Source: Veleropilina oligotropha (lineage: Eukaryota). From it: a stretch of DNA of 64,000 nucleotides. The DNA lies in NCBI GenBank assembly GCA_048128005.1, contig JBEUKZ010000006.1, positions 124,001-188,000 on the forward strand, given 5' to 3'. Position 1 is the first letter of the stretch. The number at the start of each line of letters is the position of its first letter. The notes below the pieces were generated by a model, which was not told the origin of the DNA, made no database searches, and worked only from the letters and a program-made list of their open reading frames with translations. The translations under genes were made by a program, and so were the position numbers. Below are positions 3,748 through 55,968 of the stretch, piece by piece.

Positions 3748-3864
3748 CGTAATTCATGCTTCCTGATCTGAAAATATAAAACAAATATATTAATTTTGAT
3801 ATGCAGTAAACAGAGTTAATTTAATGAGAAAATGAGGTTTTAATGTAAACCTAATATTAGTATA

Positions 3865-4070
3865 AAACATACTTACGTCCTTACTCTTGCCATAATAGCA
3901 TATTATCGCCCAAACCGGAAATGGTGAATATGTCCCATAATGCACCGTTATAAGCCAAAAAAGCACACGGTCACCTTCCCTGCTCCTACCCCCCACGTTC
4001 CCTAGCGAGACTTCGCCAAGTCTCGTGAGACTTCCGAACAATAGAAGTCACATGACATCAATTCAAAGTT
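3865..4070. repeat. DIRS-A 3' inverted terminal repeat
   Basis: Reverse complement of 11062-11267; ORFs 3790..4041(-) and 11091..11294(+) translate identically over the shared part. Confidence 0.95.
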
Positions 4071-4129
4071 CAAAAACCACAAAGGAACGTAGTAGAGGGG
4101 AGGAATGCGAACGCAGGGTGGGTAATCGT

Positions 4130-4220
4130 GTAAGGACGTAAGTATGTTTTATACTAATATTAGGTTTACATTAAAACCTCATATATAGTTACAAACATAC
4201 TTACGTCCTTACTCTTGCCA
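4130..4220. other. DIRS-A internal complementary region (ICR)
   Basis: 4130-4182 is the reverse complement of the left terminus starting at 3832; 4181-4220 is the reverse complement of the right terminus ending at 11279. Confidence 0.95.
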
Positions 4221-4278
4221 GAATAACCTTGGATAGGTGGGTAAGACGTTCCTTACAACAAACCCAAACAAGATAATG

Positions 4279-4585
4279 ACTTACTTTTCACCAATTCGAT
4301 CAGCATGAAGCGTCGAGTGTGTCCGCCTAGAGTGGAATTTTTACTGAGTATTATATTCTACTCTTACCAGGCGAGAATTTCGACCAGTGTTACCGGGAGA
4401 ATACGCCGTGGTGTTAGTCGGACGAGGTGAACGGAAGTGCAATCAGCCCCTGGCACGGCCGGAAGGATAAATCCCTGTAGGTCTTACGTGTCATGGACCA
4501 GTGGCAGCCAAATGGGTCTCCGGGCCTATAGGCCGGTAGCCAGAGGATGCAGTCGGATTTGTAAGCACACGGAACCTAACAGGTT
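4279..4585 (-). ncRNA. Putative conserved structured RNA element in the DIRS 3' UTR (copy A)
   Basis: Motif-level conservation and compensatory changes versus 18249-18560 and 52482-52790; reading frame not conserved. Confidence 0.6.
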
Positions 4586-5053
4586 GTGAAAGCTTTAAAA
4601 TCAAAAGCAAAGAATTAATAGATTATATAATAATCGATATTAATAAGTAGTTCGTATGACCAACTTGCGAACGCTAACATGGACGACATGTCACTTAAAA
4701 TAAATTTTAAGGAAGCAAAAATGTTCGACATGTTACTTAAAAATAAATGTTAAGGAATCAACATTTTAAATGTATTGAACATCGTATGTTCGATTACAGC
4801 AAAGAACATAATAATATTGAACCCTAATCTTTTTAAGATTTGTGCAAAATTATCAAAGTTGTTTTATTAAATTCAATGTGATCTGGCTTATGTCAACACT
4901 CAGTCTGACATGAGAAGTACAAAATCTTAAATTAGATTTAAGAAATGAACAGACATTGAACTGCCCCATAGGTGTTAATTACATAGCACCGTTTGGCCAA
5001 CGAAAATAAAATGGCGTCAGTAAATATGCAAATGAGCAATCAGAGAACAATAC

Positions 5054-7987
5054 TTACTGATTAGAAGACCTCGGTCTAACAATAACCCGTTGTGCAGCAA
5101 CACAGTGTAAACTGCTTAGGCCATCAGCCCCGGTTGAGTAGTCGCGCAGATAATGTTTTACAAACACGTTAGCGTTTTTCCAATATCCGGCCTGTAGTAA
5201 CGCATTGATATTTAAATTATGTCGGAAGGCTACAGACGCTGCAATGGCCCGGACCTCATGTGCGCGGACCGATAAAATAGTTCGGTCGTCGTCATCACAA
5301 CGGATGTAAACATCTCTCACAGTTTGTGAAATCCACCGCGAAACAGTAGTCCTCGTAATGTCGCGGGTGTAGGTGGGCAAATACGAAATGAATAAACGTA
5401 ATTTTCCCTGTCGCAACTCACGGGTTCTGTCTAGGTAGAATCGAAGCGCCCGGACCGGGCAATTGAAGCGGTCTGCGTCGCGCCTTCCGACTAGCGTTAG
5501 CTTGGGAATAACAACATCGGGTGCGTCCTCGTTCGGCCGCTGGTTCTTGGCTAAGAAGCCCAGAATGGGACGCAGTATCACCGACCCGTCTGACTGGAAT
5601 CGTATGTCTCTTAACTCGGAGGAGAAAGCATGAATCTCGGAACAACGCCTGCCCGACGCTAAGGCGATCAGAAAAACTGTTTTGTGCGTCAAGTTCCTCA
5701 TGGTTATCTCGGACATCGGCTCATACGGTGGTAAGAGTAATGCGTTAAGAATAAGTACGATATTCCAGGCAGGTGGCTTAATTCTTCGGGTCGGTATCTC
5801 GAGTTCATAAGATCGTATAAAATCTGATATCGTTCGGTCGCTTGATAGGCCAGCATGGGCACGACACTGCTTTAGCGTGGTCGCGATCGTTGCCCGATAG
5901 CCTTTGACGGCGGACACTGACATACCGCGGTCGAAGAGCGACGATAAAAACTCGATAAACTTGTTCACAGGGGGACGGAGTATATTGATCTGCCTGCTGT
6001 GACACCAATCCACGTACTTAACCCATCGGTAGTCATAGACTTTTGTAGTGGAAATCCTTCTCGATCGATAGATACGTAAGGCTGTAGCTTTAGAAAATCC
6101 TTTCTTAGCAAGGGATCGTTCGATAACCGCCAGGCGTGTAAACGTAAGTGGTTCGGCGACTCGTGGAGTACACGGGTGCGTGGTTGCATTAACAGGTCTA
6201 GTTTCTGCGGTAACGCTAACGGTCGATCGACGATCAGATCGAGGAGGGTCGGAAACCAAGGTTGCGTGCGATAAAGGGGCGCTATTAGCGTTATCTCGCA
6301 ACGTTCGGTCGCTGCCTTCTGTAATACCAGTGATAGAATGCACGTCGGGGGGAAGGCATACGCGGACAGATTCTCCCATGTCATTGACATTGCGTCGACC
6401 GCCAGGGCGGCCGGGTCTGGGTACGGGGAGACATACAGAGGTAGTCGGTAATTGAATTCTGTTGCAAACAAGTCGACTTGGGGTTGCGACCACCGGCGGC
6501 AAACATCCCGAGCTACTCGGCTGTGTAGCGTCCATTCTGTGTGTATAATCTGTGATCTCCGAGAGAGCGAATCCGCTCTGACATTCAGCTTTCCCGGGAT
6601 GTGTCGGGCTCGAATCGTCGAGTTGAGGGACATCACTAAGCGGTGTAGGTCTATTGCTCGGTCGCATAGGGGACGCGAGCGTGTACCGCCCTGGTGCTGT
6701 ATGTAAGCGACGACAGTCGTGTTGTCCGTGGCGAGCATTATATGCTTGTTGCGGAGATGTGACGAGAGGGACCGTACTGACAGGAAGACGGCTTCTAACT
6801 CTAGGAAGTTGATATGTCGTCCCTGAAGGTCTGTCGGCCATAGGCCTGATGTCTCGTAACTGTCGAGGTGACCACCCCAGCCGTCGTTCGAAGCGTCTGT
6901 GAACAGGTAAGCGTTCGGCTCTGGTGGGGATATAGGAACCGACTGGTCCGGCAAAGCGGGGTTCAACCACACTGCTGTCGTGTCGGTAAACCAATGCCGT
7001 AGATCGATGCGATCCTTCCACTGCCCCGTCCGTTGTATCCAGCGATCCCTGAAAGCCTGTTGTAACGGTCTTTTGTCCATGCGACCCGTCGGTAGCAGGG
7101 GCGCTACCGACTCGATGTGCCCCAGGACAGTGGCCAGTTGTCGCGCCGTAGTTATGTCCGATGACAGGGTGTCTTGGATAACCGCGCGTAGGTTCCGCAT
7201 ACGCTTCTGGGTCGGCTTCGCGGTGTACCGGACCGTATCGAAGTCGACTCCGAGGAACGTAAACGTCGTCGAGGGCACGAAGCAGGATTTTGTCTCGTTG
7301 ATCTGAAATCCCAGGCGCTTCGTCGATGACAGGGTAAAGCTCGTAGACCGGAGGCACAGATCTCGGGACGCCCCAAGGATCAGCCAGTCGTCGAGGTACA
7401 TATGTACCCTGTGCCCTAGAGAGTGTAGGAAGGCCCCCAGGGCCTGTACTGTTCTCGTGAAGACGTACGGGGCTGACGATAGACCGAACGGTAGGCACCT
7501 GAATTGGTAGATCGTCTCCCCGTGTATAAACCGAAGGTACTGATGAGCCGTGATATGCATCGGGACATGCAGATACGCGTCGGCGAGATCGATAGACGCT
7601 GCCCAGTCGCCCGGACGGATGGCCGCTCGAATCTTCGAGAGGGTTTCTTGCTGGAATTTCTCGGTACGAAGATATAGGTTTAAGTACGAGAGATCGAGGA
7701 TCGGTCTCCAGCGGCCATCGGGTTTCGGGACCAGGAAGAAATGGCTGTAAAATCCTGGTGTGCTGGGCGGCGCGGGATATATCGCTCTTTTTAGGAGCAA
7801 ATCCCGCACTGCCTGGTCTAAGACCGCTTGTTTCTCTCCGTTTAGGAGTCGAGCGTGTCTTGTTGGTGGTGCCTCGGTTAAGGTCGGATGCCGGTTGAAT
7901 GCCAACTTGTATCCGGCACTCACGACTAAGTGGACCCAGTTGCTGTCTGTCAGCTCTAGCCAGGGCTGGCTGTGTGCTAACAGGCAC
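5054..7987 (-). CDS. DIRS-A ORF3, tyrosine recombinase (C-terminal about 360 aa); N-terminal part overlaps the RT frame
   Basis: ALASGRRCSEIHA (catalytic R), AHEVRA (HxxR), AGYWK..VFVKHYL (W, Y). Annotated start is GTG, so the true start is unknown. Confidence 0.93.
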   Translation of the reverse strand: MPVSTQPALARADRQQLGPLSRECRIQVGIQPASDLNRGTTNKTRSTPKRRETSGLRPGSAGFAPKKSDISRAAQHTRILQPFLPGPETRWPLETDPRSLVLKPISSYREIPARNPLEDSSGHPSGRLGSVYRSRRRVSACPDAYHGSSVPSVYTRGDDLPIQVPTVRSIVSPVRLHENSTGPGGLPTLSRAQGTYVPRRLADPWGVPRSVPPVYELYPVIDEAPGISDQRDKILLRALDDVYVPRSRLRYGPVHREADPEAYAEPTRGYPRHPVIGHNYGATTGHCPGAHRVGSAPATDGSHGQKTVTTGFQGSLDTTDGAVEGSHRSTALVYRHDSSVVEPRFAGPVGSYIPTRAERLPVHRRFERRLGWSPRQLRDIRPMADRPSGTTYQLPRVRSRLPVSTVPLVTSPQQAYNARHGQHDCRRLHTAPGRYTLASPMRPSNRPTPLSDVPQLDDSSPTHPGKAECQSGFALSEITDYTHRMDATQPSSSGCLPPVVATPSRLVCNRIQLPTTSVCLPVPRPGRPGGRRNVNDMGESVRVCLPPDVHSITGITEGSDRTLRDNANSAPLSHATLVSDPPRSDRRSTVSVTAETRPVNATTHPCTPRVAEPLTFTRLAVIERSLAKKGFSKATALRIYRSRRISTTKVYDYRWVKYVDWCHSRQINILRPPVNKFIEFLSSLFDRGMSVSAVKGYRATIATTLKQCRAHAGLSSDRTISDFIRSYELEIPTRRIKPPAWNIVLILNALLLPPYEPMSEITMRNLTHKTVFLIALASGRRCSEIHAFSSELRDIRFQSDGSVILRPILGFLAKNQRPNEDAPDVVIPKLTLVGRRDADRFNCPVRALRFYLDRTRELRQGKLRLFISYLPTYTRDITRTTVSRWISQTVRDVYIRCDDDDRTILSVRAHEVRAIAASVAFRHNLNINALLQAGYWKNANVFVKHYLRDYSTGADGLSSLHCVAAQRVIVRPRSSNQ

Positions 7988-7995
7988 GCTCCCAC
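5965..7995 (-). CDS. DIRS-A ORF2, reverse transcriptase - RNase H - methyltransferase-like domain
   Basis: FLVPKPDGRWRPILDL, IDLADAYLHVP, LPFGLSSAP, YLDD; RNase H TDAS..GWG, HINFLELEA, TDNTT, NVRADSLSR; MT-like DLFAT...YAFPP. No ATG at the start. Confidence 0.95.
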   Translation of the reverse strand: MGACLLAHSQPWLELTDSNWVHLVVSAGYKLAFNRHPTLTEAPPTRHARLLNGEKQAVLDQAVRDLLLKRAIYPAPPSTPGFYSHFFLVPKPDGRWRPILDLSYLNLYLRTEKFQQETLSKIRAAIRPGDWAASIDLADAYLHVPMHITAHQYLRFIHGETIYQFRCLPFGLSSAPYVFTRTVQALGAFLHSLGHRVHMYLDDWLILGASRDLCLRSTSFTLSSTKRLGFQINETKSCFVPSTTFTFLGVDFDTVRYTAKPTQKRMRNLRAVIQDTLSSDITTARQLATVLGHIESVAPLLPTGRMDKRPLQQAFRDRWIQRTGQWKDRIDLRHWFTDTTAVWLNPALPDQSVPISPPEPNAYLFTDASNDGWGGHLDSYETSGLWPTDLQGRHINFLELEAVFLSVRSLSSHLRNKHIMLATDNTTVVAYIQHQGGTRSRPLCDRAIDLHRLVMSLNSTIRARHIPGKLNVRADSLSRRSQIIHTEWTLHSRVARDVCRRWSQPQVDLFATEFNYRLPLYVSPYPDPAALAVDAMSMTWENLSAYAFPPTCILSLVLQKAATERCEITLIAPLYRTQPWFPTLLDLIVDRPLALPQKLDLLMQPRTRVLHESPNHLRLHAWRLSNDPLLRKDFLKLQPYVSIDREGFPLQKSMTTDGLSTWIGVTAGRSIYSVPL

Positions 7996-8038
7996 CGGCG
8001 GGAGCGGGCAGCTGGGGCCGTCGCGAATGCCGGCAGCC

Positions 8039-10282
8039 CTAGGGCCGAGGCTTCCCTATCCCGCTCTGCTTGCGGGATTTCGCTGGAGGTGCTCGCCTCT
8101 TTGGAGTGGGTTTATTGGCCGGAGGCCTACCACCCGAAGAGGGCTTCGCACGCTTAGAAGGCTTCGGGGCCGGGGTGGGCCCGGAGCGCTTCTTCGAGTT
8201 GGCAGGTGGACCCCGGGTGGGGAGCAGTACTGCCTTCTCGATGGCACGGTCCTTAATGTCCGCCGCTCTCTTGTCAACAAACTCCGTGAAGTTGTCACCA
8301 AAGAGAGTGGTGGCCGAGCAAGGTACGCATCGCAACGAGCGCCGGGTGGGCTCGTCCAGCGAGGTACCTTCCAGGCAAGCATCCCTACGTAGTAGGAGGG
8401 CATTGCCCAGGACACGTCCCGTCTCCAACGCGCTGGTCTCCTGCGCGGCAGCAACCTCCTGGAGGAAGGACAGGGCAGCCTCGGTGGCGCCGGGTCCATT
8501 CTCCTGTAATACGGCTATCGCCCCGTCTAGGAAAAAATCCTGAACGGACGATAGCCGCAGAGCCCGTCGGGCGGAGCTCTCGAAAGCTTCCAAGGCGGAC
8601 CAAGGAACTTTCGCTACGGAGGGAGTGTGACTGGCGGTCAGTCGACGCAACGAAGCGTCAACACGAGCCGGCTCAGTCGCCAGGCACGGGCCAGTGCATT
8701 CGAACGGGGTCGCTCGAGTACTGGCCCGGAGGTACCTCCCACTACGGAACCCCGAAGGGAACTCGTTCAGCGGGGAGGACTCCACCGGATTGCGCCCCTG
8801 AACGAGCTTGGTGATCGAGTCTACAACAAGATCCACCAGCCCGGACTGAGGTAAGGAGGGGAGCTCGGGGGCTTCCCTCGCAACAAACCGATGTGCTGCC
8901 GTCCTATGCTTGGCTACGTCTACAGCCGACCGAGTCGGTTCCGACAAGCCAAGCACCCCGCGAAGTGACGCAACAGCGTCGAGCCTTCGGCGGGTGGAGG
9001 AGGTCGGCTCCTGCATGCCTGTAAGACTAATGTCTTCGGACCCGACCGATTCAGGGAGGTCGGAGTGATTTGAACAGAGATCCTCGTTGGAACGAGGGTC
9101 GATGTCTATCACTGAGGCAGGAGCCGTGCTCTGCGCCATGGGCAGAAGTGTAGGTACCAGGTGCGGCTCGGGAGCCGTCGGCCAGGCCTTACACCGTTCC
9201 TCGATCCCCGCCGCGATCCATGCCTGGACGTTCTCAAAAGAGAAACCCGGAGGCAGGACGGGCGACGAACTAACAGCCGGTAGTTCTGTCGAGGTAACCG
9301 TGGCGCTAGGTAGACGGGCTGCATTGACAGGTCGAACCGAGGACCAGGGTCCACGGGCACTTGTCGAGGGGTCGAACCCGAAGGACTGGCCCGGAGGCGC
9401 AGTCAGTGGGCCGGACGACCGATAGGACTGCGGCAACAGTTCTGATCGGTCTACCACTCTGTTCGAGCGAGGCACGGACGGAAAACCGCCGTAGAACCCC
9501 GTCCCGAACGCAGCCGGTCTGTCCACGTTCTCTAGCGTGACCACGGTGGGTGCACGGGAGAGACCGGGCCCTCTGAATGTCTCGTGAGCTTCGAGGTTGA
9601 GCGGAAAACCCCTAGGGGAAGTCGCATCGTTCTCGACCGAGGATTCAGGTTTCGCCGATTGTCCGAGTCTTAGACCTACAAGTAGGTGCCCGGCCTCTTT
9701 AAAGGCTTTCTCTGCATTGGGTCTGTCACCGTAGGAAGACGGTGAGTTTCCCGCAGAAGGACTAACTGTCCCCTTATTCTTCGAGGCCGAAGAAAAGGAT
9801 GGGGATAGTCTGCCCTGTTCAGCTGTTCGCTGCGCTGTCATGTATACCTTGCTAGCCGGCAAGGTATGGCTGACTGCAGTTACTAGGCCCAGTTGTGGAG
9901 GAACGGTCGACACTCGGGTCTTTACCTGAATCTGGGGTACCGGCAAGGTTTCGGTGACTCTCCCAAGAGTCGCGGAGGTTTCGCCGGTGGATCCGGCGAC
10001 AGACGTCTGTCGGCTGTCGTCCAGCGTCCCTGAAGCAGACAAAGAAGAAACGTTAGGTAACTTACCGGTCTCTTCATGACCCTTCTCCACGGGAGGACCC
10101 ACCGTGGCAGTCGCCCTGGTCGACTTACCGTGGTGAGACAGGGTTGCCCACTGCTTATCTGATAGAAGAAAGCACAGATCACATTGATGATGTATACTAC
10201 AGCTACGATGAGTACAACATTCCTTGTGCCTATCAAATGCGTGAATTTTCTGGTTACACCCGGAGCTACTGCACCGGACCAT
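8039..10282 (-). CDS. DIRS-A ORF1, gag-like
   Basis: Long ORF upstream of RT. N-terminal Cys/His cluster (CSSSGC..H..C..H..C...C..C) and LLRRDACL...LFG motif shared by all three copies, plus a basic tail. ATG 10282 chosen by alignment with copies B and C. Confidence 0.88.
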   Translation of the reverse strand: MVRCSSSGCNQKIHAFDRHKECCTHRSCSIHHQCDLCFLLSDKQWATLSHHGKSTRATATVGPPVEKGHEETGKLPNVSSLSASGTLDDSRQTSVAGSTGETSATLGRVTETLPVPQIQVKTRVSTVPPQLGLVTAVSHTLPASKVYMTAQRTAEQGRLSPSFSSASKNKGTVSPSAGNSPSSYGDRPNAEKAFKEAGHLLVGLRLGQSAKPESSVENDATSPRGFPLNLEAHETFRGPGLSRAPTVVTLENVDRPAAFGTGFYGGFPSVPRSNRVVDRSELLPQSYRSSGPLTAPPGQSFGFDPSTSARGPWSSVRPVNAARLPSATVTSTELPAVSSSPVLPPGFSFENVQAWIAAGIEERCKAWPTAPEPHLVPTLLPMAQSTAPASVIDIDPRSNEDLCSNHSDLPESVGSEDISLTGMQEPTSSTRRRLDAVASLRGVLGLSEPTRSAVDVAKHRTAAHRFVAREAPELPSLPQSGLVDLVVDSITKLVQGRNPVESSPLNEFPSGFRSGRYLRASTRATPFECTGPCLATEPARVDASLRRLTASHTPSVAKVPWSALEAFESSARRALRLSSVQDFFLDGAIAVLQENGPGATEAALSFLQEVAAAQETSALETGRVLGNALLLRRDACLEGTSLDEPTRRSLRCVPCSATTLFGDNFTEFVDKRAADIKDRAIEKAVLLPTRGPPANSKKRSGPTPAPKPSKRAKPSSGGRPPANKPTPKRRAPPAKSRKQSGIGKPRP

Positions 10283-11061
10283 AGCTAAATACACGGGAGG
10301 GTGGACGTGGGTAGACGGGGTAGATAAATAGGTATATATATGGTAGTTGAGACTTCTTTCCTTGGAGGGAGTACTACGACAACTCACAGAATTGTCCTGA
10401 TCTGAAGATTAGAGATCAAGCGATATACCGTTATTAAAAACCCCGAACTGGGAACACCGAGGTCGGGTATTTTACCCGACCGACCCGGTAACCCGGCAAA
10501 TTGACTAAAACAAAGGGAGGTTATTTCCTCGAAAAAACCGCCCAGAAAAACACCTGAAAACCTCGTGGATGTTTTATGTTAGTACAATGGCGTATTATCC
10601 CAGCCACGGCAGGATATCAGAAAATTAACGCAAGCTTAATATCAAAAGATCCTGCCTTTTAACAACGCTAGAAAATTTTTTATATAATAATAACCAGCAA
10701 ATAGCGTTGTTAAGGAATTATCCAATATAATGAGTTACCTGTTTTGCAGTCTCAAACAATATCAGATAATTATACAGACCAGAAATTTCAGCTACCACTC
10801 GAAATTTTCCCTCTAAGCGGCCTCTTTAACGGCCACTGGCGTCCTTGACGACGATGTCTGTTTCCTTTGATGTCCAGAACTTCCTCGAAGTTTGAGAATC
10901 ACTCTTCTTATATTCACATGTGTTTTAGATCCACAACACAGGGTTATATTCCACTACTTATATACTATATAAGCAGAAACTGCGCCCTGATTTAACGTGA
11001 AATCGGGCGCCTATATCGAAATATTTGCGGAGCAAAACAACGTCTTTCCGCGACAGCGGAA

Positions 11062-11267
11062 AACTTTGAATTGATGTCATGTGACTTCTATTGTTCGGAA
11101 GTCTCACGAGACTTGGCGAAGTCTCGCTAGGGAACGTGGGGGGTAGGAGCAGGGAAGGTGACCGTGTGCTTTTTTGGCTTATAACGGTGCATTATGGGAC
11201 ATATTCACCATTTCCGGTTTGGGCGATAATATGCTATTATGGCAAGAGTAAGGACGTAAGTATGTTT
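11062..11267. repeat. DIRS-A 5' inverted terminal repeat
   Basis: Reverse complement of 3865-4070. Confidence 0.95.
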
Positions 11268-16125: not shown

Positions 16126-18248
16126 ACAAAAGCATCGCCTTGCATTTATGTTAAACTGATAATGATTAAACTATGATGACACTATACAGTGTCCACTCAA
16201 GAATTTTGAACAGATTTATATGAAACCGGTACTTTACGACATTGTGTACTAAAGATTTTCTGCATAATAAAATGCTGTACATACGTTCTCTTATGATGTC
16301 CAGAGAAATAAAATGCTGTACATACCTTCTCTTATAATATCCGGAGAAATAAAATGCTGTACATACCTTCTCTTATGATATCTGGAGAAATAGCTACATG
16401 TATCTCAATTGTCCTTCACCATAATAAATCAATATTGACTTGCTTAAGAATTCAAGCACGATGAAATCCTGCAAATCTTACTATTAGGAAGATAATACAT
16501 ACGCTGTTCAATTATTCAGTTGCTAACTCTTAATGGTTCTATAATGGTCCATCCATTGATTAGCAGATCTCTCCTTTCCATTTCCCATGTATCCATATGA
16601 ACATTAATGCAACATATCAATCTCACGTTTTCAATGCGATAAAATTTAATATTAAATTGACCACACCTTGTTGCATGCCAACATCAATGATCGACAAGGT
16701 GTAATAACAATGAAACACGCATCTGCTTTGCAACATCAAATTATTGCGTGCTGTTACTCCAGAATGCACAACCCTCTCTACGATGCCCACCCACGAGATG
16801 TCACACGCTACAAAGAAGGATCACAATTCATTGCCCGATGCCTATTCAGCCAAAAACACAGCAATTAATATTTCAGGTAAATTGAATGACAAAGGCCTCT
16901 GGTCAGGGGTTAATTAATAGATATATGCCGGAGACGATCCATTCTTAAAAATATTGGCCCGGGGCCGGCCCAATATTTTTAACAATGGATCGTCTGAGAC
17001 TTACATCTACTTAAACTATTGTTTCCCATTTGAATGTGTTTTGTCATGCCACATTATTATTTAAATAATATTAAAGCACTCAAACAACATGATTTCAGTA
17101 TTAAAATTAACTTCTATAATAAGTCATTTAGTTGTTAATTTCAATACTGAAGTCAAGCTGTGTCTGCTTCTTCCCACCGCCCCACACGGGTCATTGTTAA
17201 AGTGCTTGGCTTATACGGGTCATTGTTGAAGTGCTTGGCTATTTTATAAATATAATTATCTGCCTGATTTTTAAGTGAAGTCTCACCTGAACGATGTACC
17301 ACGTGGTATTTCAGTTCAATTTGGCTGTTGTAATTCGGACAGCGACCTGTCCACACTTGGAATTTATCGCAAAGAATATGGATATTTATTTGTGCTATAT
17401 TGCAATCTGCCAATGTTGTCGCTTTAAGTTGGATTTATAACATTCTGGATGTACTACACGGACATAGGAATATCATATTTTGTTTACCTGCATTATAAAA
17501 GACTAGCGGATACAGTCATATTTCGCTGAAATCCCCCATTTTTCGCCCCCCCCCCTCCCCATTTCTCGCCCTCTTCCCCAGTTTACCCCCCTCCATTCAC
17601 AACAATAGTTTAAATATCAATAATTCCACAAAGACAATGCTACACACAAGCCAGCAATATTGTCATCTGATTGGCTCAGCAGCTTTACAGGCGACTGTCA
17701 AGGAATATCAACATCAGTGTCTATCGGTTAGATAACATGTTTATTTATTACTTGCAAGAATGTCGGAGGGCACCGACAATAATAAGATTTTAACTAATCT
17801 ATATATTTACAATAACATACTTACGTCCTTACTAATGCCATAATGGCCTCATTATCGCTAAACCGGAACCGTGGAATTTGACAAATTCGCACTTCTCTTA
17901 CAAAAAACCACTCCCTTCCTCCCCCCTCTGCACCAAGTTCCCAATCTCCAGAAGAGCAGAGGTCCAGGACATGTCCCAATCGAATGCGTCTTATGACATC
18001 AATTCAAGTGTAGGAGCGTTACCATAGCTAGGAACTTAGAGAGGGGAGGAAATGCGTGTAACGCATGGGAGGGCCAAACGAGTAAGGACGTAAGTATGTT
18101 ATTGTAAATATATAGATTAGTTAAAATCTTATTATTTACTTCAAACATACTTACGTCCTTACTAATGCCAGAATAAACTTGGATAGGCGGGCCTAAGTTC
18201 TAGTTTATTAAACTAATAAACAATAAACCCATAATCAAGATTATCTGT

Positions 18249-18560
18249 ACTTACGCCATCCGGAATCGGCTTTGAAGCGTTGATTCGAGTGATCCGCCCA
18301 GAGAAGAATCTCATGAGTATTATTCTACTCTTACCGCGCGTGGATTTTGACCAGTAATCCTGGGATGTACTCGCTCGGATGTTAGTGGATCGGGATGGAG
18401 GAAGTGCTTGCCACCCAGGAACCTGGTCGTATGTTTTCGAAGACACCGGGCGCTCAGGTTCTGGACAGGTGTAACCTACTGAAATAGACCTCAGGCCATC
18501 ATGGCCGGCATTCAGGAGGACAAGTCGGTTGAATAAACATCCTGAAATGAGTTGCAGGCA
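18249..18560 (-). ncRNA. Putative conserved structured RNA element in the DIRS 3' UTR (copy B)
   Basis: Aligns by motifs with 4279-4585 and 52482-52790, with compensatory changes. Confidence 0.55.
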
Positions 18561-18916
18561 TCTGTTATCAAACAAGCAGGTATTCATGGAATTTTGATAA
18601 ATTCCGGTAAAATGTGATATATAAATATATACAATTTAAAATACCTATTTCGCATGACTAACCAGCGAAATGCTAACCTCTGCGTAGGAATGTATTTAAA
18701 ATGCAAAGGAAAAAATACCGTAGAGGTTTTACAAAGCAGTACAAATAATATTCGAAGTAGGCAGTCAATAACTCAGTATGACAACATTTATTCTTAATTA
18801 AATTAAGAGAAATTAACTTCGAATCATCGCTAAAGAGATAAAGTAACTCGATAGGAAAGGTTGTACATTCATTGTTTTCAATGACGAGAGCAATAAACTG
18901 ACAGTTTCAACTCACC

Positions 18917-21865
18917 TCATTGTTTCGGCCTGGGTCGGACAATGGCTGTCTGGGCAGCTACGCATTGCAGCGAAAAAAGTCCGTCTGCCGCCGTGTTGAA
19001 ATCCCTGAGGTAGTGGCGTATGAAGACATTTGGTTGTTTCCAATAGCCTGCCTCTAATAAAGCCGTCATGTTGAGTGTAAAATTGAACGCGAGTGAAGTA
19101 GATATGGCCCTTACTTCATGTGCGTTTATCCGAACTACATTGTGGTCGACTTCGTTGGAAGCGAGGTAAATCTGTTTTACCGTAGTGGCTATCCATCGGG
19201 CGACGGTAGACTTAGTCACGTCGCGTTTGAACGTAGGCAAGTAGGAAATAAAAAGCTTTTTCTTTCCCTGGCGCATATCCCTAGTTCGGTCCATGTAGTA
19301 ACGGAGTGCTCTAACAGGGCAGTTGAGGCGATCCCGGTCTTTGCGGTCTATGATCGAAAGGCTGGGAATCACTACATCTCTGGGTACGTCTGCGGGTCGT
19401 TGAGTTTTAGCAATGAAACTGAGAACGGACCGTAGTATAACTGACCCGTCTGGCTGGAATTTGATGTCCCGAAGCTCTGAGGAAGCTATGGATTTCGGAT
19501 GACCGTTTGCCCGACGCCAAGGCGATTAGGAACACCGTTTTGTGAGTAAGGAGTTTGAGGGTGCTATCACTCATAGGCTCGTAAGGCGGTCGTAGTAGAG
19601 CGTTCAGGATCAATACTATATTCCAGGCTGGCGGCCGCGCCAGTCCGACGGGTCGTTCGATTTCATACGATCGGACGAAGTCCGATATCGTTGGGTCAGT
19701 GGACAGGTTTACTCGGGACCGGCATTGCTTGAGCGTAGTCGCTATTGAGGTCCGGTATCCTTTGACCGCCGAGGTAGATAGTCCTCGTTCGAATAAAGTT
19801 GATAAGAATTCGATGAAATCGTTTACAGCTGGTCGGAGAATATTGACCGACCGGCCGTTACACCAATCCACGTAGAGATTCCATCTATAATCATAGAGTC
19901 TAGTAGTAGATTGTCTCCTCGATAGGTAGACGCGGCGGGCGATTGCTCTAGAAAAGCCTTTCTTAAGCAGGGATCGTTCGATAAATGCCAGGCGTGAAGT
20001 CTCAAGTCGTCTGGCGACTGGTGGAGTACACGGTTGCGCGGCTGCATTAACAGGTCTGGTCTCTGCGGGAGCGCTAGCGGTTTGTCGATGATCAGTTCGA
20101 GGAGGGTCGGAAACCAGGTCTGCGATCGTCGTAGTGGCGCTATTAGCGTGAGATCGCAACGGTCCAGCGATGCTTTCCTTAGCACTCGGTGTAGAATACA
20201 CGTTGGTGGGTAGGCATACGCGGTCAGATTCTCCCATGACATGGACAGCGCATCTATTTGTAGGGCTGCTGGATCCGGGTAGGGTGATACATACAGAGGA
20301 AGTCGGTAGTTGAACTCTGTTGCAAACAGATCGACTTGGGGTTGTGACCACCGGCGACAAACATCCCGTGCTACTCGGCTGTGTAGCGGCCACTCTGTGT
20401 GTAGAATCTGCGATTTCCGAGAGAGCGAATCCGCTCGGACGTTCAATATACCTGGGATATGTCGTGCTCGTATGGTTGAATCGAGGGACATCACTAGGCG
20501 GTGTAGGTCGATCGCCCGGTCGCATAGTGGACGGGAGCGTGTACCGCCCTGGTGTTGAACGTAAGCAACGACAGTCGTGTTGTCCGTAGCTAGCAGAATG
20601 TGTTTGCTGCGAAGGAGTTCCGAGAAAGACTGAACTGAAAGGAAGACCGCTTCCAACTAAAAGGTTGATGTGTCGTCCACGTAGTTCCTCCGGCCATAGG
20701 CCTGACGTCTCGTGACTGTCGAGGTGACCCCCCCAGCCTTCGTTTGAAGCGTCCGTAAAAAGGTAGGCGTTCGGTTCTGGTGGGGAAATGGGAACCGACT
20801 GGGTCGGCATCGTAGGGCCCAACCACACTGCTGTTGTGGAGTCGAACCAATGCCTGAGATCGATGCGATCCTTCCACTGTCCCGTACGTTGTACCCATCG
20901 TTCCTTGAGGGCCTGTTGTATTGGTCGCTTGTCCATGCGACCCGTCGGTAGCAGGGGAGCTACTGATGCGATATGCCCCAGGACAGTGGCCAGTTGTCGT
21001 GCCGTGGTAACTTTCTGGGAGGATGTCTCCTGTATCACGGCTCGAAGATTCCCGATACGTTTCCCTGTTGGCTTCGCGGTGTAGAGGACCGTGTCGAAGT
21101 CGACACCGAGGAACGTAAACGTCGTCGAGGGCACGAAGCAGGATTTCGTCTCGTTGATCTGGAATCCTAGGCGCTTCGCCGATGACAGGGTAAACCTCAG
21201 GGACTGGAGGCACAGCTCTCGGGACACCCCGAGAATCAGCCAGTCGTCGAGGTACATTGTACTCTGTGCCCATGCGAGTGTAGGAAGGCACCAAGGGCCT
21301 GTACTATCCGCGTGAAGACGTATGGGGCGGACGATAGACCGAAAGGTAGGCACCTGAATTGGTATGTTGTCTGCCCGTGCACGAACCGAAGGTATCTGTG
21401 TGTCGATGTATGCATCGGGACGTGTAGATACGCGTCGGCAAGGTCGATAGACGCTGCCCAGTCGCCCGGACGGATGGCCGTACGTATCTTCGCCAGTGTT
21501 TCTTGCTGGAACCTCTCGGGGCGAAGATACTTGTTGAGGAACGAGAGATCGAGGATCGGTCTCCATCGGCCGTCTGTCTTCGGGACCAGGAAGAAATGGC
21601 TGTAGTATCCTGGTGTGCTGGGCGGCACGGGATAGATCGCTTCCTTCAGGAGCAAATCCCGTACTGCCTGGTCTAGGACAGCTTGCTTCTCCTTGCCTAG
21701 GAGGCGAGTCTGTCCAGGTGGTGCTTCGGTTAGGGTTGGTTGCCGGATAAATGAAAGCTTGTATCCGGCACTCACGACTGAGCGGACCCAGCTGCAGTCT
21801 GTTGTCTCCAGCCAGGGCTGGCTGTATGACAGCAGGCACGCTCCCACCGGCGGGAGCGCCGGCAA
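18917..21865 (-). pseudogene. DIRS-B RT/RNaseH/MT and tyrosine recombinase, frameshifted
   Basis: Pieces in ORFs 21236..21865, 19407..22010, 19823..20656 and 18917..19372; frameshifts near 21258, 20660 and 19415-19480 relative to copy A. Confidence 0.92.
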
Positions 21866-21867
21866 CC

Positions 21868-24108
21868 CTAGGGCCGAGGCTTCCTCTTCCCGCTCTGACG
21901 GGGCTTCGTTGGAGGTGCGGTGGTAGGACGGGGCTTAGTAGCCGTAGGCTTGCCTTTCCTAACCCGTGCACGCTTAGTCGAGCTCTTGCCGTCCCTCGGG
22001 GGGGCGGCACGCTTCCTTGAGTCGGTCGTTTGGGCCCGGGTGGGCCCCGAGGACGGCCTTCTCAATCGCTCTGTCCTTCATCTCGCTGGCTCTCTTCTCG
22101 ACGAATTCGGAGAATTTGTCACCGAAGAGAGTGGGAGCGGACAAGGGAACACAACGCAACGAGCGCCGGGTGGCCTCATCAAGCGTAGTTCCCTCCAGGC
22201 AAGCGTCCCTCCGAAGAAGGAGAGCATTGCCCAGGACAGAAGCGGACTCCAACGCGCTTTTCTCCATGGCGGTAGCAACCTCGGACAAGTATGAAAGTGC
22301 GGCCTTTCGAGCGCCGGGTTCATCTTGTTGTAGGACGACAATCGCCCCATCCAAGAACAAGTCTTGTATGGAGGATTGTCGTAGAGCCCATCGGGCAGAG
22401 CTCTCGAAGTTTTCCATGGCGGCCCATGGAACCTTCGCCGTCGAGGGAGTGGAACTGTCGGGTCTAAGGCGGTGCATCGCTGCGTCCACCCGGACCGAAT
22501 CAGTCGCCAGGCACGGGTCAGTACAGGAAATCCCGTGGGATTCCTTCCTGGCCCGGAGCAGCCTGCCCTTAGAAAGCCCCTTGGGGTATTCTGTGAGGGT
22601 AGCCGTATCCACCGACTTTTTACCCTGAATGGAGCGGGTCGCCTTGTCCAAGACAAGGTCGATTAGCCCAGACTGGGGGAGTGTGGGAAGCAGGGGCGCT
22701 TCCGACTCCAAAAAGCGGTGTGCCGCCGTCCTGTGCTTGGTCTGGCTGACGGTATCGCAATGATCCGGCAGACCAAGCACCCCACGAAGCGAAAGCACGG
22801 CTTCTCGCTGTTTGTGGGTGGTGGAGACGGGTTCCAGGGTGCCTGTGAGACTCGAAGAGTCTTCAGGGCCGACCGACTCAGGGAGGTCGGCTAGAGAGGA
22901 GTCGGAGTCCTCGTCGGGACGAGGGTCGACCTCCATCTCTTGGGTTGGAACCCTGCTCTGCGCCTCGGTCAGAGTAGTAGAGAGCTGGTGTGACTGCGAA
23001 GCAGACGGGGACCAGGATCTACGTAGGGCCTCGCATTCCGCCGCTATCATTGCCCTTACTGACTCCATGGAGACGAGAGGCATGACGGGCGTTGAACCAA
23101 CAGCCGGTGGTTCACGCGAGGTTACCGTGGCGCTAGGGTGTCCGTTCGCATATGTGGGTATCTGGAACCGAGGTCCCTGATACTCCACGTAGCGGTCGCC
23201 GGTGAACAACGGGCCCGAAGGCGAGTTGAGCCCGGCTAGTGTCGTGGCCACGACGCATACGGGTTCACCGCTATGCCCGACTGATCAGGGAAACCCCTGT
23301 AGGATCTGTCGGGCGCGAACGAACCGTCCACACCTCCGGTCGAGAGGCTATTAAAATAGCTTCGAGCGTTGGTGGGCCCTCCGTCGTCGACTTGAGCTCC
23401 TGCATAGAATTGGTGGCCCTCTCGGGTCGCAGTCTCTGTGCGGGTCGTCGGAACGGGTTTCGGCGAGTGTCCGGCTACGTGTCCAAGGACCGAGCCGGCG
23501 ATCGAGTCGTCTTTTACCTGTGGATCTGTTAGAGCGGCATACTTCCCCGGAAGGAAGCTGGGTGACCCTAACAGACCACAGGAGGGATGAGAAGTGCCCT
23601 GCTCTACCGAGGCCGGTAGAGAGGAAGGAGACTTTTCACCCTGAACGTTTCGGAGCGGCGCCCGGTCTGTCTCGCTGGCCAGCGAGTCAGGTTGGGTGGC
23701 TCGTACTTTGTCCGGAGGAGGAGGAACTTGCTCTCGGGCAATAATTGTTACCTGAGTCTCTCGGATCTCACGTGTCCCTGCAACGCCCGCCCCCAGGGTC
23801 GCGGTGGAGCTCGGAGATACGGCGTCGGTCTTCGCTCGTGCTGGATCGACAGCCGGAGTTCCTGAATGAGATAAAGGTGTAGAGTTAGCACACTTACCCT
23901 CATTCTGCTTGGGCCCGGTGGATTCTTCCCGGATTGGAGTGCTGGACAGCATTTTACCCGCAACAAGAAGGGCCCACTGCTTTTCCGTAAAGAAGACGCA
24001 ACGCTTACATGGCTGTTGTTGATTACAGGAACGGTGCAAAACACACCGAGGGTGTTTATCAAATGACAGGATCCTGTTGCCACAGAGGGGGAGGGTACAC
24101 CTGCCCAT
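21868..24108 (-). pseudogene. DIRS-B gag-like ORF1, frameshifted
   Basis: Cys/His N-terminus and LLRRDACLEGTTLD motif; two frame breaks (about 23240 and about 22040). Confidence 0.85.
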
Positions 24109-26212
24109 GGTGGAAGCACGGAAAATTGGAGAGGTTGGAAAACGGAAACTATCTAAATCAGGGTAGGTTTTGTCAAGTTGAACTACGACACTTTCAGGGT
24201 ATGTACCCGGAAGTGTTTCTTACTCGAAGCTGAGTAAGACAGATAAAGATGAAACCGAACCAGCTGGAATTCGCTGACAGCGACTTTATCCAAGCGCTAT
24301 GCGCGTTTAGATAAGGTCGGAAAACAAGGGAAGGGGGTGATTGTTCAACAACCCCCTCCCCCGGACAGGTTGTTAGGAGGGTGAGCGAGTTATCCCAGGA
24401 TTGGCAGATTGAGAATTCGATGAAATCGCCAAAGATCTGCCTTTTAGAGACGCGGAAAATTTTTGTAAATCTTTTTAGCAAGCAAGCGTCTCTAAGGATT
24501 ATTCAAAGTATACAGAAATATTACAGTATATATATTACGTAATCCCGTATACAAGAATAATATAGAACAATCAGAACAATATAGAAAAGATGCCCCCTGT
24601 TAAGGGGGCTACCCTGTGTTGTTGTTCCCTCTGTAGGCGTTCACTCCCTCTTGTTTACATCTCTAGGATTTTCAAGATGGCGCCCAAAAAGGCGGGAAAG
24701 TTTTTTCACAAAGAAAACTTTTCTTCCTTCTAGATCTCCCTTTTCGTAGGTCGAATAGGCGATCGGCTTCTAGTATTCCACTGTAGTACTATAAGGCACA
24801 CTCCAGAAACAATCTTTGGTAAAATCCAACAGGTAGATCTTCAGAAATTATTTCAGAAATCAGCAGCCAAAAGCACTAGGTCTATGCTTGACAACGGAAA
24901 CACTTGAATTGATGTCATAAGACGCATTCGATTGGGACATGTCCTGGACCTCTGCTCTTCTGGAGATTGGGAACTTGGTGCAGAGGGGGGAGGAAGGGAG
25001 TGGTTTTTTGTAAGAGAAGTGCGAATTTGTCAAATTCCACGGTTCCGGTTTAGCGATAATGAGGCCATTATGGCATTAGTAAGGACGTAAGTATGTTTGA
25101 AGTAAATATTTATTAAGTAAATTTGGGATAAGAGCATGGGCTAAATGCCAATATTTCAATTGCAAGCCCATGTAGCGTATGTATTTAGCAATCTGTTCTT
25201 TTCTGAACAAACAGCTTAGCTATTTTATCGACCATTTTAATTTAAGCCGTGGCTACGAGTGTAGAACCATGCATTCAAATCCGAAGGCTAAAAGTGCAGA
25301 ATCATCCTTAATTGCATGGCATCATATGCACCGCTAGAAGTGGCTGCGACTGTCCTGCCGGCTGGCTATCCATTCTAGATCAAAATCCATTCTCTATCAA
25401 CCCAGCCCACCATATGCAACTGTATTGTGATTTTTAGGTGGGTACCACCTTCAGAAGAGACAGTCACTCTGACCGTCCGTTTACCTGGTTGTCTGTTATA
25501 GATCAAAATATGTTCTCGATCAACCGTGCCCACCTTATGCAACCGTGTTGTGATTTTTATCTATGACATGAGGTGGGAAAATCCATACGCTTTTTATACA
25601 TGGCAACGGGTATGGAATAGTTCTGAATGGTAACATGCAGATAAAAACTGTATACATCGACAATGGTTCATTTCGTCTCCATTAATTAATCATTCTTAAC
25701 AATTGTGGTATAAATTAATGATCTAGCTTGAAAATATCTGAGTGAATAATGCACGATTTGCACGGAGATTGGAAAGATTTGAGTGAATTATGTGATCCAT
25801 TTTGAAATATTCAACGGAATTTGAGTGACTAATGAACAACCATCATTGTGCGCAGCTTGAAGAAATTCGAGTTACAGCCTGGCCATTTTTAATATGCACG
25901 ATTTTTCAAATATTATTAAATGTACATATATGACTTTTAGACAAGATCACATGAATTCCATGCCAATTTCAATAACACAAGAGAAGTTTCCATGTCAATA
26001 CAACAGTTCTGGGGGAGTGGGCTATGAATTTTGACAGGACATCTTCGTGTGCATATTCACTTTTATGGGATGTTTGAAGGAATAGTTCAGAAGTGACAGA
26101 CAGGACAGATATGGGTGGAAGAGAATGAGAAATCTGACAATGGGGATTGCGAGAGACAGTATTATAGTAGAATTTTTACATGATTGAATTGGACCTATGC
26201 TGTATTTATAAT

Positions 26213-40450: not shown

Positions 40451-42571
40451 CTCAAGGAAGGCGCACCAATTATATCACAATATCTGTCACTTATATTCAA
40501 CAACTCTCTCCGCCAATCTGTCTTTCCCAAATGCTGGAAAATAGCCAACGTAACGCCCGTACATAAGAAAGGTGATAAAACTGATGTTACAAACTACAGA
40601 CCAATTTCGTTACTAAGTTGTCTAGACAAAGTATTTGAGAGATGTGTTTTTGATCATGTGCATAACTTCATAACGACCCATAATATTATCACACAGCACC
40701 AGTCTGGTTTCACTTCCAACGACTCTGCCGTTACACAACTAATGGACATATATAACACTTTTAGTAAAGCAGTGGACGATGGGAAGGAAATAAGAGTGGT
40801 GTTTTGCGATATCAGTAAAGCATTTGATCGTGTATGGCATCGGGGTTTATTATTTAAACTTCGACAATCTGGCATCTCGGGCTCTTTACTCGATTGGTTT
40901 CAAGATTATCTGAAAGATAGATCACAGAAAGTTATCATTGAAGGATCACAATCAGACTGCCTTGAAATCAAGGCTGGAGTCCCACAGGGTTCCATATTAG
41001 GGCCTATGTTATTTTTAATATATATCAATGATATAATTAATGACATTAAAGCTAATATCAAATTATTTGCAGACGATACATCATTATATATAATTGTTGA
41101 GGATCCCGTAGCAGCATCAGATATATTGAATAGTGATTTAAATAAACTTCATTTGTGGTCAAAACAATGGCTTGTAATTTTTAACCCAAATAAAACCGAA
41201 GAAATGATATTGAGTAGAAAAACTAACCCGCCTAACCATCCAAGTATCTACATGAACAACAATCAAGTCCAACAGGTGAATTCACACAAACACTTAGGCT
41301 TAAACATACAAATTAATCTTTCTTGGCATACACATATTGAGGAAATAACGTCAAAAGCTTGGATGAGGATTGCAATATTAAGAAGTCTGAAGTTCAAATT
41401 GGATAGAAAGTCGCTCCAAATTATGTATTTTTCTTTTATTAGGCCTCTACTGGAATATGCTGACATTGCACCGGTTACGAGCGTGACGAAGTTGAAAAAA
41501 TACAAACAGAAGCAAGCAGAATCGTAACCGGTGCAACTAAATCATGCTCTGTTGCAAAACTAATGGAGGAAACTAAATGGGAGTCACTGTCGCACAGGCG
41601 CTACAAACATCGTATATTATTTTTCTTCAAGATGGTCCATAATTACTCACCTGCTTACTCACGTATATTAGTCCCTCCAAGAAATCAAAACATCCATGAG
41701 CGAAACTTGAGAAACAATGCAAATCTACAGATTCCGCTATCAAGAACCAACCTTTACCAAAATTCATTCCTACCGAAAACTGTAAATGATTGGAACCTCC
41801 TTCCGGAAAATATCAGATTAAATCCCTCCATATACTCAATCAAGACTTTTTTTAATAGAAACAATTCCAGCCCTCCACAGTATTACTATTTTGGTAATAG
41901 AGAAGCTCAAATATATCATACTCGATTACGGCTGGGTTGCAGCTCGCTAAATAGTGATCTGTTTCTTAATCGAATATCCCAAACTGATGCTTGTGCCTGT
42001 GGGCATGCAGAAACACCAAAACATTACTTATTAGAATGCAATCAATATCAGCTCACCAGACAGTTAACAATAGGAACATTAACTCACCCAATTAACATAG
42101 ACATACTACTGAATGGTAGCTCTATGCTGTCCGATGTTGCAAATCTAGAGATCTTCAGAGAGGTACAAAACTTTATTATTTCCAGCAAACGATTTACATA
42201 AATAAATACATTAAGTTATATTATGATAAACGTAGAAAATCGAGACTGAATCTTATGGAATAATCACTGTAATAATTATTGTATATTCGCATGTATGTAC
42301 GCATGCACGTATGTTTGTATACTGTAGTAAATTGCGTTCCACCCTTTGAAAATATATACATGTATTCCATTGTACAAGGATTACCACTGTTTAATTAATA
42401 CGTTTCAGTAGACGACAACCATCCTTGTATAAATAGATATTATGTATATTTGTTACGCTATGTACTATAGAGGAAATAGCTTTAAATAAGATATCTTTCT
42501 TGTTGCTAAATCCTCTACTTGTATTATTGTAATGTAATCAATTGGAATATTTCTTAATAAATATTGTTTAA
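40451..42571 (+). mobile_element. 5'-truncated CR1-group LINE with 15-bp TSD
   Basis: RT motifs NYRPISLL, FCDISKAFDRVWH, GVPQGSILGP, LFADDT; C-terminal C.CG...ET..HYLLEC; frameshift about 41470; TSD actaaccctaaagga at 40436-40450 and 42572-42586. Confidence 0.93.
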
Positions 42572-51898: not shown

Positions 51899-52481
51899 TA
51901 TATATATATCTCTCTTTCGTCATCACATAACATGCGTAATGGCTAGATGACCAACAACCGTCATGCGATAAATATATTTTGTTTCTAATGCTAATTGAAT
52001 GTTAATTGTTTGTTGTTCTGTTATAATTGGCAATGGTAACATGAGGATTAAGAGTAATCCCTTGTATCTATAATAATATACTTAGGTCCTTACTAATGCC
52101 ATAATAAGCCTATTATCGCTAAATCCGGACAAGGTGGAAATGGTAATTTCGCACTTTTTAGTAAATTTAACCCACTGACCCACTGACCTGCTCGACCTCC
52201 TCCAGTTCATGCCTATTAAGAGCTCGCCAACTCCCGCGAGATCCTCGTGACCAAGGGTCAAGACCTCATCCGAAGTTTAAGCAAACCCCAAGGCAAAGAA
52301 CTTATATAAGAGGGGAGGTGCGAAGCAGGGTGGGCCAAGTGGGTAAGGACGTAAGTATATTATTATAGATACAAGGGATTACTCTTAATCCTCATATCTA
52401 TATCAAATATACTTACGTCCTTACTAATGCCAAGAATAACTTTGGTTGGCGGAGTTATAAGTTCCATACACCAAAATTAAA

Positions 52482-55965: not shown

Positions 55966-55968
55966 CAA

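Follow-up and report, generated by a model that had tools for sequence, protein, structure and literature searches.

The three DIRS-type retroelements on the minus strand of a 64,000-nt stretch of the Veleropilina oligotropha genome (GenBank assembly GCA_048128005.1, contig JBEUKZ010000006.1, positions 124,001 to 188,000; hereafter the window, with positions counted from its first nucleotide) each carry a conserved non-coding block in the 3' untranslated region (UTR), between the stop codon of the tyrosine recombinase (YR) gene and the internal complementary region (ICR). Our best explanation, which we hold tentatively, is that the block is a cis-acting 3' UTR module that is specific to this DIRS lineage and may act as a partly folded RNA on the sense transcript.

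A Conserved Non-coding Block Upstream of the ICR

The elements, A (3872-11260), B (17818-25093), and C (52079-59207), have ends that were set by matches between the ICR and the termini. As judged from their sequences they are distinct DIRS subfamilies, with amino-acid identities of 78-82% in the reverse transcriptase (RT), 59-67% in the frame that overlaps it, and 51-57% in gag. In each element the same order of segments follows the YR stop codon: an AT-rich spacer, a GC-richer island, a short AT-rich segment, and the ICR. The island is the block, which occupies positions 4279-4585 in A, 18249-18560 in B, and 52482-52790 in C (all minus strand). An nhmmer search with a three-sequence profile found exactly these three sites in the window at E-values of 1e-80 to 1e-85 (A, 4e-84; B, 3.5e-80; C, 9.3e-85), together with one chance match (E 7.6).

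A first-pass annotation of the window, made from the sequence alone, had drawn attention to the block, and several of its descriptive statements stand. The GC content is 0.45-0.58 in all three elements, compared with 0.22-0.31 in the spacer, and the six motifs it listed (GCACTT, ACTAACA, TGGTCRAAA, GGTAAGRGTAGA, ACGCT, and a final GTAAGT) are present in the same order in every copy. Its claim of a conserved block of about 310 nt has to be narrowed: the block is real and has the extent described, but only the 3' part, from 4460 to 4300 in A, reaches approximately 65% pairwise identity, the level of the YR gene. The 5' half (4460-4590) has 45-60% identity, little over that of the spacer. The well-conserved part is about 165 nt long rather than 310. 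The spacer of A, from the YR stop to the block (4590-5053, minus strand; GC 0.24-0.34), has an identity of 0.14-0.5 with many gaps, and is essentially unalignable between subfamilies. That the block is conserved while both of its flanks are not, with identities of about 65% in its 3' half and about 25-50% in the spacer, supports its being a functional module.

The block does not encode protein. No open frame was found in the copy of element A, every sense frame contains at least four stops in A and at least three in C, and tblastx comparisons of the blocks gave similar scores in all frames and on both strands, with no frame favored. A protein-coding exon is ruled out by these stops and by the frame-neutral scores, as the first-pass annotation had anticipated from indels that do not preserve frame. 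Several of the A/C indels add up to multiples of three. Comparison with Rfam, which it had proposed, yielded no known element: no family reached its gathering threshold anywhere in the window, and nothing inside the blocks matched at E≤10 apart from a 20-nt chance match at the edge of the B copy (E 2). The only Rfam matches were miRNA-like and fell on the ICR palindromes, whose hairpins draw sub-threshold matches to miRNA precursors. These results support a block that is non-coding, under selection relative to its flanks, and unlike anything described in Rfam.

The ICR follows the block at a distance of 70-90 nt, and the element ends approximately 400 nt from the block. The ICR of A (about 4125-4225, minus strand; consensus-fold z -10.6) matches both termini: it joins the reverse complements of the left-terminus start and the right-terminus end, in that order, with arms that are perfect over 20 nt (4212-4193 and 4149-4130). 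This is the layout given as classical for DIRS-1 (PMC7192593; PMC3266345; both cited, here and below, from part of their text). The block itself has no reverse complementarity to the left-terminus start or the right-terminus end and was rejected as an ICR; blastn at word size 7 gave no match between block and termini, and the only sequence that matched was that of the ICR (A 4225-4200, to 3872-3897 and 11235-11260). A CpG island was likewise rejected, the ratio of observed to expected CpG being about 1 over the whole element. The sequence TGGTCRAAAT starts like a primer-binding site, but its conservation ends after 10 nt and priming there would miss the ICR; ARAGORN identified no tRNA in the window, and we consider a tRNA or primer-binding site unlikely. 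A search for long-range pairing of the block with other parts of the element gave as its best result 9 bp, rich in G-U, with the beginning of the YR gene; we judged this, with no null computed, to be within chance expectation.

Pairing Shared by the Three Copies

All structure tests were made on the three sequences of A, B, and C. The RNAalifold consensus of the block has an energy of -38.3 kcal/mol and 64 or 65 pairs, depending on the alignment; 45 of the 64 pairs are kept in all three copies, and 15 of these are changed on both sides. Simple column shuffles gave consensus-energy z-scores of -3.44 for the sense and -2.41 for the antisense strand, values that were later replaced by those from a stricter null in which dinucleotide content and the succession of conserved and variable columns are both preserved. 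Under the stricter null the whole block scored z -3.45 in the sense (0 of 150) and -3.18 in the antisense orientation (1 of 150). The null was calibrated on the neighboring YR gene (14 windows, mean z +0.09, minimum -1.11) and on the spacer (four windows, mean -0.3), and in a scan of the whole element four consecutive windows in the block gave z -4.57, -3.37, -2.95, and -2.25. Pairs predicted from single copies also survive substitution more often in the block (0.38-0.40) than in the RT and YR genes (approximately 0.27). The three copies share, to a modest degree, more consensus pairing than the calibrated null predicts.

The best conserved 3' domain (A 4316-4428, B 18286-18396, C 52520-52632, minus strand) can be drawn by hand as a three-way junction with four helices and 21 pairs: P_a (4423-4419 with 4325-4321), P_f (4410-4404 with 4373-4367), the P_c hairpin (4396-4393 with 4387-4384), and the P_b hairpin (4363-4359 with 4350-4346). 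The model leaves ACUAACA, UCRAAAU, and CACUCU unpaired, and 88.9% of its cells pair, compared with 26-46% for slid partners. The helices named in the first-pass annotation were found where and as it had described them. GUCCG/CGGAC, at the P_a positions in A and also in C, becomes GAUCC/GGAUC in B; GAGUA/UACUC of A and B becomes GGGUA/UGCUC in C; and a single hairpin occurs in the versions CCGG/CUGG, CCAG/CUGG, and CCAG/UUGG. Folded singly, the 3' domain gave z -3.26 in A, -1.55, and -0.14, of which only the value of A stands out.

In the 5' half, the consensus contains a long imperfect hairpin, P2 (4446-4498, minus strand; windows z -3.6 sense and -4.4 antisense), whose outer stem changes from GUCC/GGGC in A to GCUC/GAGC in C. 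Its inner stem is GACAC/GUGUC in C and GAACCUG/CAGGUUC in B, which do belong to the same hairpin as had been claimed, and GACAC/GUGCC, with one mismatch, in A. A second hairpin region, P1 (4508-4547, minus strand), also predicted by RNAalifold, reads CCGGCC..GGCCCGG in A and CCGACC..GUCCGG in C, a change from G-C to A-U. On these models some shared pairing is probably present, in the 5' half as the P1 and P2 hairpins and in the 3' half as a small junction; the pairing is not strong and falls short of proof.

Distribution of the Block

An RT-alignment scan of genome contigs (four loci) located DIRS copies in two assemblies, termed here G001 (loci L010, L012, L013, and L019-L042) and G002 (locus L011). 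G001 is a 9-Mb assembly filed as a bacterial metagenome-assembled genome, and its DIRS copies are eukaryotic host DNA that was binned with the bacterium. At least 12 DIRS copies in it match the YR at E 6.8e-43 or better, 11 of which lie in open frames of approximately 1000 codons, and there are also 12 weaker YR matches. The C-terminal 302 residues of the YR-bearing frame of A are 34-44% identical to 12 of these copies, in 11 of which the frame is 988-1009 residues long.

None of the searches of these and other sequences detected the block outside the window. BLAST of the block DNA against G001 and G002 returned only chance matches of 15-25 nt (E 0.4-5.9), a profile hidden Markov model (HMM) and the motifs did not find it at the DIRS loci of either assembly (GGTAAGRGTAGA occurs in 0 of 33 loci), and a covariance model of the 3' domain recovered only its three training copies in 154,942 bases. 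A metagenome scan for TGGTCRAAAT followed by GGTAAGRGTAGA gave nine loci, all attributable to chance (blastn found none, and nhmmer matched the pattern alone). In viral contigs the DNA pattern had no match, and four protein or alignment scans were without a relative. In a protein search with the RT, the best 120 matches listed were just 38-50% identical, which indicates that there are no close public relatives of these elements. Judged from these searches, the block is confined to the A, B, and C lineage rather than being a general part of DIRS elements.

In the G001 copies the length of the 3' UTR up to the ICR ranges from about 300 nt to about 1000 nt. Folding of the sense strand upstream of the ICR gave z -3.63, -2.72, and -2.16 in three of seven G001 copies and was unexceptional in the others, and the copies in the window were near 0; as a general DIRS trait, stable folding at this position was not adopted on such a mixed result.

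Proposed Role of the Block and Alternative Explanations

If the block is a cis-acting RNA module, as we tentatively propose, its 5' half would form two hairpins of drifting sequence and its 3' half a compact junction of four short helices, displaying the invariant motifs ACUAACA, UCRAAAU, GGUAAG, and CACUCU as single strands. The mechanism we prefer is that the RT or Gag of the element would bind the displayed motifs and that binding would mark the full-length RNA as template before minus-strand synthesis begins in the right terminal repeat, by analogy with the use that non-LTR elements make of their 3' UTR. According to the part of PMC7192593 cited here, the priming of DIRS cDNA synthesis is not understood and first-strand synthesis does not require the ICR; another cis signal is therefore to be expected. 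The cis signals defined so far in DIRS elements are the terminal repeats and the ICR only, and a conserved module close to the ICR offers a concrete candidate for template choice or priming. Its value is limited by its restriction to a single lineage without public relatives and by a fold that is not established. The data establish that the block is conserved and non-coding, where it lies, and that its copies share a modest folding signal; that RNA and not DNA is active, how it folds, and which protein it binds are our inference.

A number of results weigh against this proposal. Covariation, as the first-pass annotation had termed it, is not shown: just 1 of the 21 pairs of the hand model is changed on both sides, its covariation score was reached by 317 of 500 shuffles, and invariant columns are more frequent in paired (28/42) than in unpaired positions (34/76), so that constraint on primary sequence could account for the helices. 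With no more than three sequences in the alignment, strict covariation is not demonstrable. The folding energies of the single whole blocks are ordinary (dinucleotide-shuffle z -0.86, -0.40, and +0.28), and stems of at least 5 bp that survive substitution in both other copies, allowing 3 nt of slack either way, are no commoner in the block (24/214, 0.11) than in the YR gene (49/677, 0.07), spacer (115/709, 0.16), and RT gene (126/642, 0.20) taken as controls. The earlier suggestion of a structured cis-acting RNA consequently keeps the consensus z of -3.45 against the calibrated null, but neither unusual stability nor covariation above that of shuffles. The block is also far weaker than the hairpins with z -7 to -12 and obvious compensatory changes elsewhere in the same elements (see below). 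It does not lie at the 3' end of the RNA, the ICR and part of the terminal repeat coming after it, and searches of 12 DIRS copies from another host by profile HMM, by motif, and with the covariance model gave no homolog.

The argument that the fold is on the element transcript, which the first-pass annotation had based on G-U pairs, can be retained for one half of the block only. The 3' domain scores better in the sense orientation (z -3.29, compared with -1.85 antisense; -2.93 and -1.25 in windows further 3'), in agreement with the G-U pairs in P_b and P_c, but the 5' half shows the reverse (sense -3.59, antisense -4.43) and the block as a whole scores alike on both strands, a further point against a role confined to the sense RNA.

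The best-surviving alternative, though one we regard as rather unlikely, is an RNA-processing module, that is, an exon-like island read by the splicing machinery, for instance by U1 on GUAAG-type motifs. Such a module would regulate how the full-length RNA is spliced, exported from the nucleus, stabilized, or prematurely polyadenylated, and the motifs would be signals rather than parts of a fold. The boundary signals of a spliceosomal exon are indeed found in all three copies, with a pyrimidine tract and YAG/G at the 5' edge (in A, a pyrimidine-rich run and TAG/G at 4576-4590, minus strand, read from the sequence; ..catttcag/g in B; ..ctgcctag/g in C) and the 5'-splice-site-like GTAAGT at the 3' edge (A 4279-4284, B 18249-18254, C 52482-52487, minus strand). 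Three of the six conserved motifs equal textbook splice signals, ACUAAC a branch site and GGUAAGR and GUAAGU 5' splice sites. The variable AT-rich segments on either side are intron-like, and donor-like sites lie at or after the YR stop in A, where the stop falls inside CA/GTAAGTAT (the spacer opens with GTAAGTAT, 5057-5050, which overlaps the TAA codon), and in B, where GAG/GTGAGT begins one base after it. The final GTAAGT is one case of a feature that recurs among DIRS elements: of 10 elements from two hosts, 7 have GTRAGT at 63-120 nt before the ICR (all three in the window and four of seven in G001), against 0.05 expected per 120 nt. In G001 a pyrimidine tract and AG come after it.

Other observations speak against processing by the spliceosome. 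C has a weaker sequence and no good donor at the YR stop, and GTRAGT overlaps the stop in none of the 12 G001 copies (L022 has GTGAGT 31 nt after it). The internal arrangement of ACUAACA and CCCAG was rejected as a working branch site and acceptor, as A, the most intact copy, has CCCGG; this loses the AG and keeps the pair as G-U, a change that speaks for the fold. In addition, introns spliced from the template RNA would vanish from progeny elements, yet these segments persist.

An unlikely alternative is that the block works as DNA or as minus-strand cDNA: as a scaffold beside the ICR that helps single-stranded cDNA into a shape in which its ends can anneal to the ICR, as accessory sites for the recombinase, or as an antisense promoter or regulator. 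The comparable antisense fold signal (whole block z -3.18, and the better antisense score of the 5' half) would fit such a role, as would the position of the block adjoining the ICR and the recurrence in the block of GTAAG, which occurs twice in the conserved terminal/ICR sequence GTAAGGACGTAAGTATG. Moreover, DIRS-1 accumulates linear single-stranded cDNA, and its ICR acts after first-strand synthesis (PMC7192593, in the part cited). Contrary to a DNA-level role are the better sense score of the 3' domain and the G-U pairs of two of its helices, which are C-A on the other strand, the lack of any repeat or complementarity between block and termini beyond the ICR, and the lack of a CpG-island signature across the element.

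Less likely again is that the block has no discrete function and is a slowly decaying GC-rich relic, for example of former coding sequence, or the product of exchange between subfamilies, its helices being chance pairings such as any GC-rich alignment of 300 nt would provide. The control-like frequency of conserved stems, the covariation no better than in shuffles, the single-sequence z-scores near 0, a GC content equal to that of the coding parts, and the several A/C indels that add up to multiples of three would all agree with this. Against it, both non-coding flanks have diverged past alignment, as a neutral segment should have too, an identity of about 65% is too low for recent exchange, every sense frame of A and C is interrupted by stops, and the null behind the consensus-fold z of -3.4 is calibrated on the adjacent YR gene. 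An undescribed self-cleaving or ligating ribozyme, a suggestion of the first-pass annotation, is highly improbable even with the precedent of hammerheads in other retroelements (Penelope-like elements, PMC4209133; retrozymes, PMC4918200; both cited in part), as we found no signature of one, no Rfam ribozyme or other family, even at E≤10, matches inside any of the three blocks, the helices are short and have poor support, and cleavage would sever the ICR, whose signal is essential for transposition, and the terminal repeat from the template.

Splice-like Signals and the Surroundings of the ICR

In 8 of 10 elements ACTTAC, the complement of a GTRAGT-type site, falls within the right arm of the ICR or directly behind it, and both this sequence in the ICR and termini and GTRAGT upstream of the ICR are conserved in the DIRS lineages of two hosts. 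It is conceivable, if doubtful, that the folded 3' UTR domain, its splice-type bounds, GTRAGT, and the ACTTAC of the ICR and termini together constitute a previously unrecognized RNA-level control system of DIRS elements. Such a system would recruit U1-type or element-encoded factors and decide between processing of a transcript as mRNA and its retention at full length as template. If it exists, these would be the first cis-acting RNA signals other than the ICR to be defined for the DIRS order.

ATACTTAC(C/G) occurs in the right arm of the ICR and at the left-terminus start, with the complement (C/G)GTAAGTAT near the right terminus. These sites are found at 4130-4212, 18082-18165, and 52340-52425 in the window and also at loci L019, L023, L027, L028, and L030 of G001. 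(C/G)GTAAGTAT equals the consensus 5' splice site, and its complement matches the 5' end of U1 snRNA; each end of the element therefore has a donor-like site that faces outward. On either side of the ICR, and in one orientation, there is a C-rich motif, as TTACCCACC in the window (4235-4245 and 4112-4122, minus strand) and as CCTCCCACC or CCCGCCTCCC in G001 (L019, L022, L027, L028, and L030), and is common to both DIRS lineages.

Hairpins Elsewhere in the Same Elements

The same test applied to the rest of the three transcripts identified conserved pairing at three other places. The 5' UTR contains an 11-bp hairpin (A 10713-10659, minus strand; z -7.4) in which four pairs are changed on both sides and whose arms are UUAACAACGCUA..UAGCGUUGUUAA in A, UUAGAGACGC..GCGUCUCUAA in B, and UCAACGACG..CGUCGUUGA in C. 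This hairpin is clearly covarying, with support far better than that for the 3' block; it is flanked by an intron-like GTAACT...TTTCTAG. The hairpins of gag (A 9881-9750, minus strand) reach z of about -12 with 15 of 39 pairs changed on both sides. One example, at about 9750-9935, has the arms UACCUUGC..GCAAGGUA in A, CUCGC..GCGAG in B, and UAUCUUGC..GUAAGAUA in C, and a second has the versions UCUUCG..CGAAGA, UCUACCG..CGGUAGA, and CUCCUCCG..CGGAGGAG. The gag hairpins sit within coding sequence, and 20 of the 38 gag windows have z -3 or below.

At the gag/RT junction there are two hairpins (A about 7861-7766, minus strand; z -8.85), with 22 of 36 pairs invariant and two changed on both sides. 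They lie just 3' of the gag stop (8039) and of the starts of the RT and YR frames, and could serve in translational control, such as reinitiation or the choice between overlapping frames. All of these have long stems in which several pairs change on both sides, and they score z -7 to -12; by comparison, the block has only helices of 4-7 bp and z -2 to -4.6.

Organization of the Elements and of the Window

On the minus strand of element A, a gag-like open reading frame (ORF) occupies 8039-10387, an RT/RNase H/methyltransferase-type ORF 5965-7995 (Pfam RVT_1, E 3.1e-20), and a frame of 977 codons, which overlaps the RT gene and whose last 300 or so residues are the YR, 5054-7987. The sole conserved island in the spacer is a small hairpin (A 4650-4672, B 18647-18671, C 52863-52887, minus strand) that pairs as GUUCG(C)A..U(A)CGAAC in A, with one mismatch, as AUUUCGC..GCGAAAU in B, and as UUUUGCA..UGCAAAA in C, where a C-G pair is replaced by U-A. 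A also has a left extension of about 14 nt (11247-11260) and a right extension of about 35 nt (3837-3871), both complementary only to the ICR; left extensions are given for fungi and amoebozoa only in the part of PMC3266345 cited here.

Outside the DIRS elements, the minus strand between 26212 and 30705 has highly repetitive overlapping open frames with weak, repeat-type Pfam matches, and a separate RT ORF on the plus strand (40658-41527; RVT_1, E 1e-24) is probably that of a non-LTR element. The GC content of the window background is 0.32-0.40, compared with 0.55-0.61 in the DIRS coding parts.

Comparison With Known Systems

Literature searches on DIRS splicing, secondary structure, and covariation brought up no paper with an RNA domain at the position of the block; the original DIRS reviews and supplements (including Additional File 3 of PMC3266345), which fall outside that scope, may annotate one. 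In the part of its text considered, PMC3266345 has no mention of the terms non-coding, untranslated, intron, or hairpin, and the sole RNA structure in the corresponding part of PMC7192593 is a short 3'-terminal hairpin proposed as a primer; in these parts neither paper describes a domain where the block lies. The block nevertheless belongs to a known class, that of cis-acting non-coding modules of retroelements, of which it is a new instance.

The 3' UTR RNA of R2 lies at the very 3' end of the transcript, has a well-supported fold, and is bound by the RT of the element. Like it and the 3' UTR RNAs of other non-LTR elements, the block is non-coding, a few hundred nucleotides long, and conserved within a lineage, and would by analogy mark the template for the RT. 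Unlike the R2 RNA, it lies 70-90 nt upstream of the ICR and approximately 400 nt from the end of the element and has a weakly supported fold, and DIRS elements, unlike non-LTR elements, replicate via single-stranded cDNA and a tyrosine recombinase.

The constitutive transport element of simple retroviruses is, with others like it, an export element located between the last ORF and the 3' terminal repeat. The block differs from it in having no sequence or Rfam match to it and no internally repeated loop motif, but it has a similar position, and a comparable function would be sensible for an RNA that bears splice-site-like sequences and has to leave the nucleus unspliced.

The block lacks the complementarity to the termini that distinguishes the ICR, but like the ICR, the terminal repeats, and the extensions described in the cited parts of PMC3266345 and PMC7192593, it is a cis, non-coding component of the same 3' region, and its conservation continues into the ICR.

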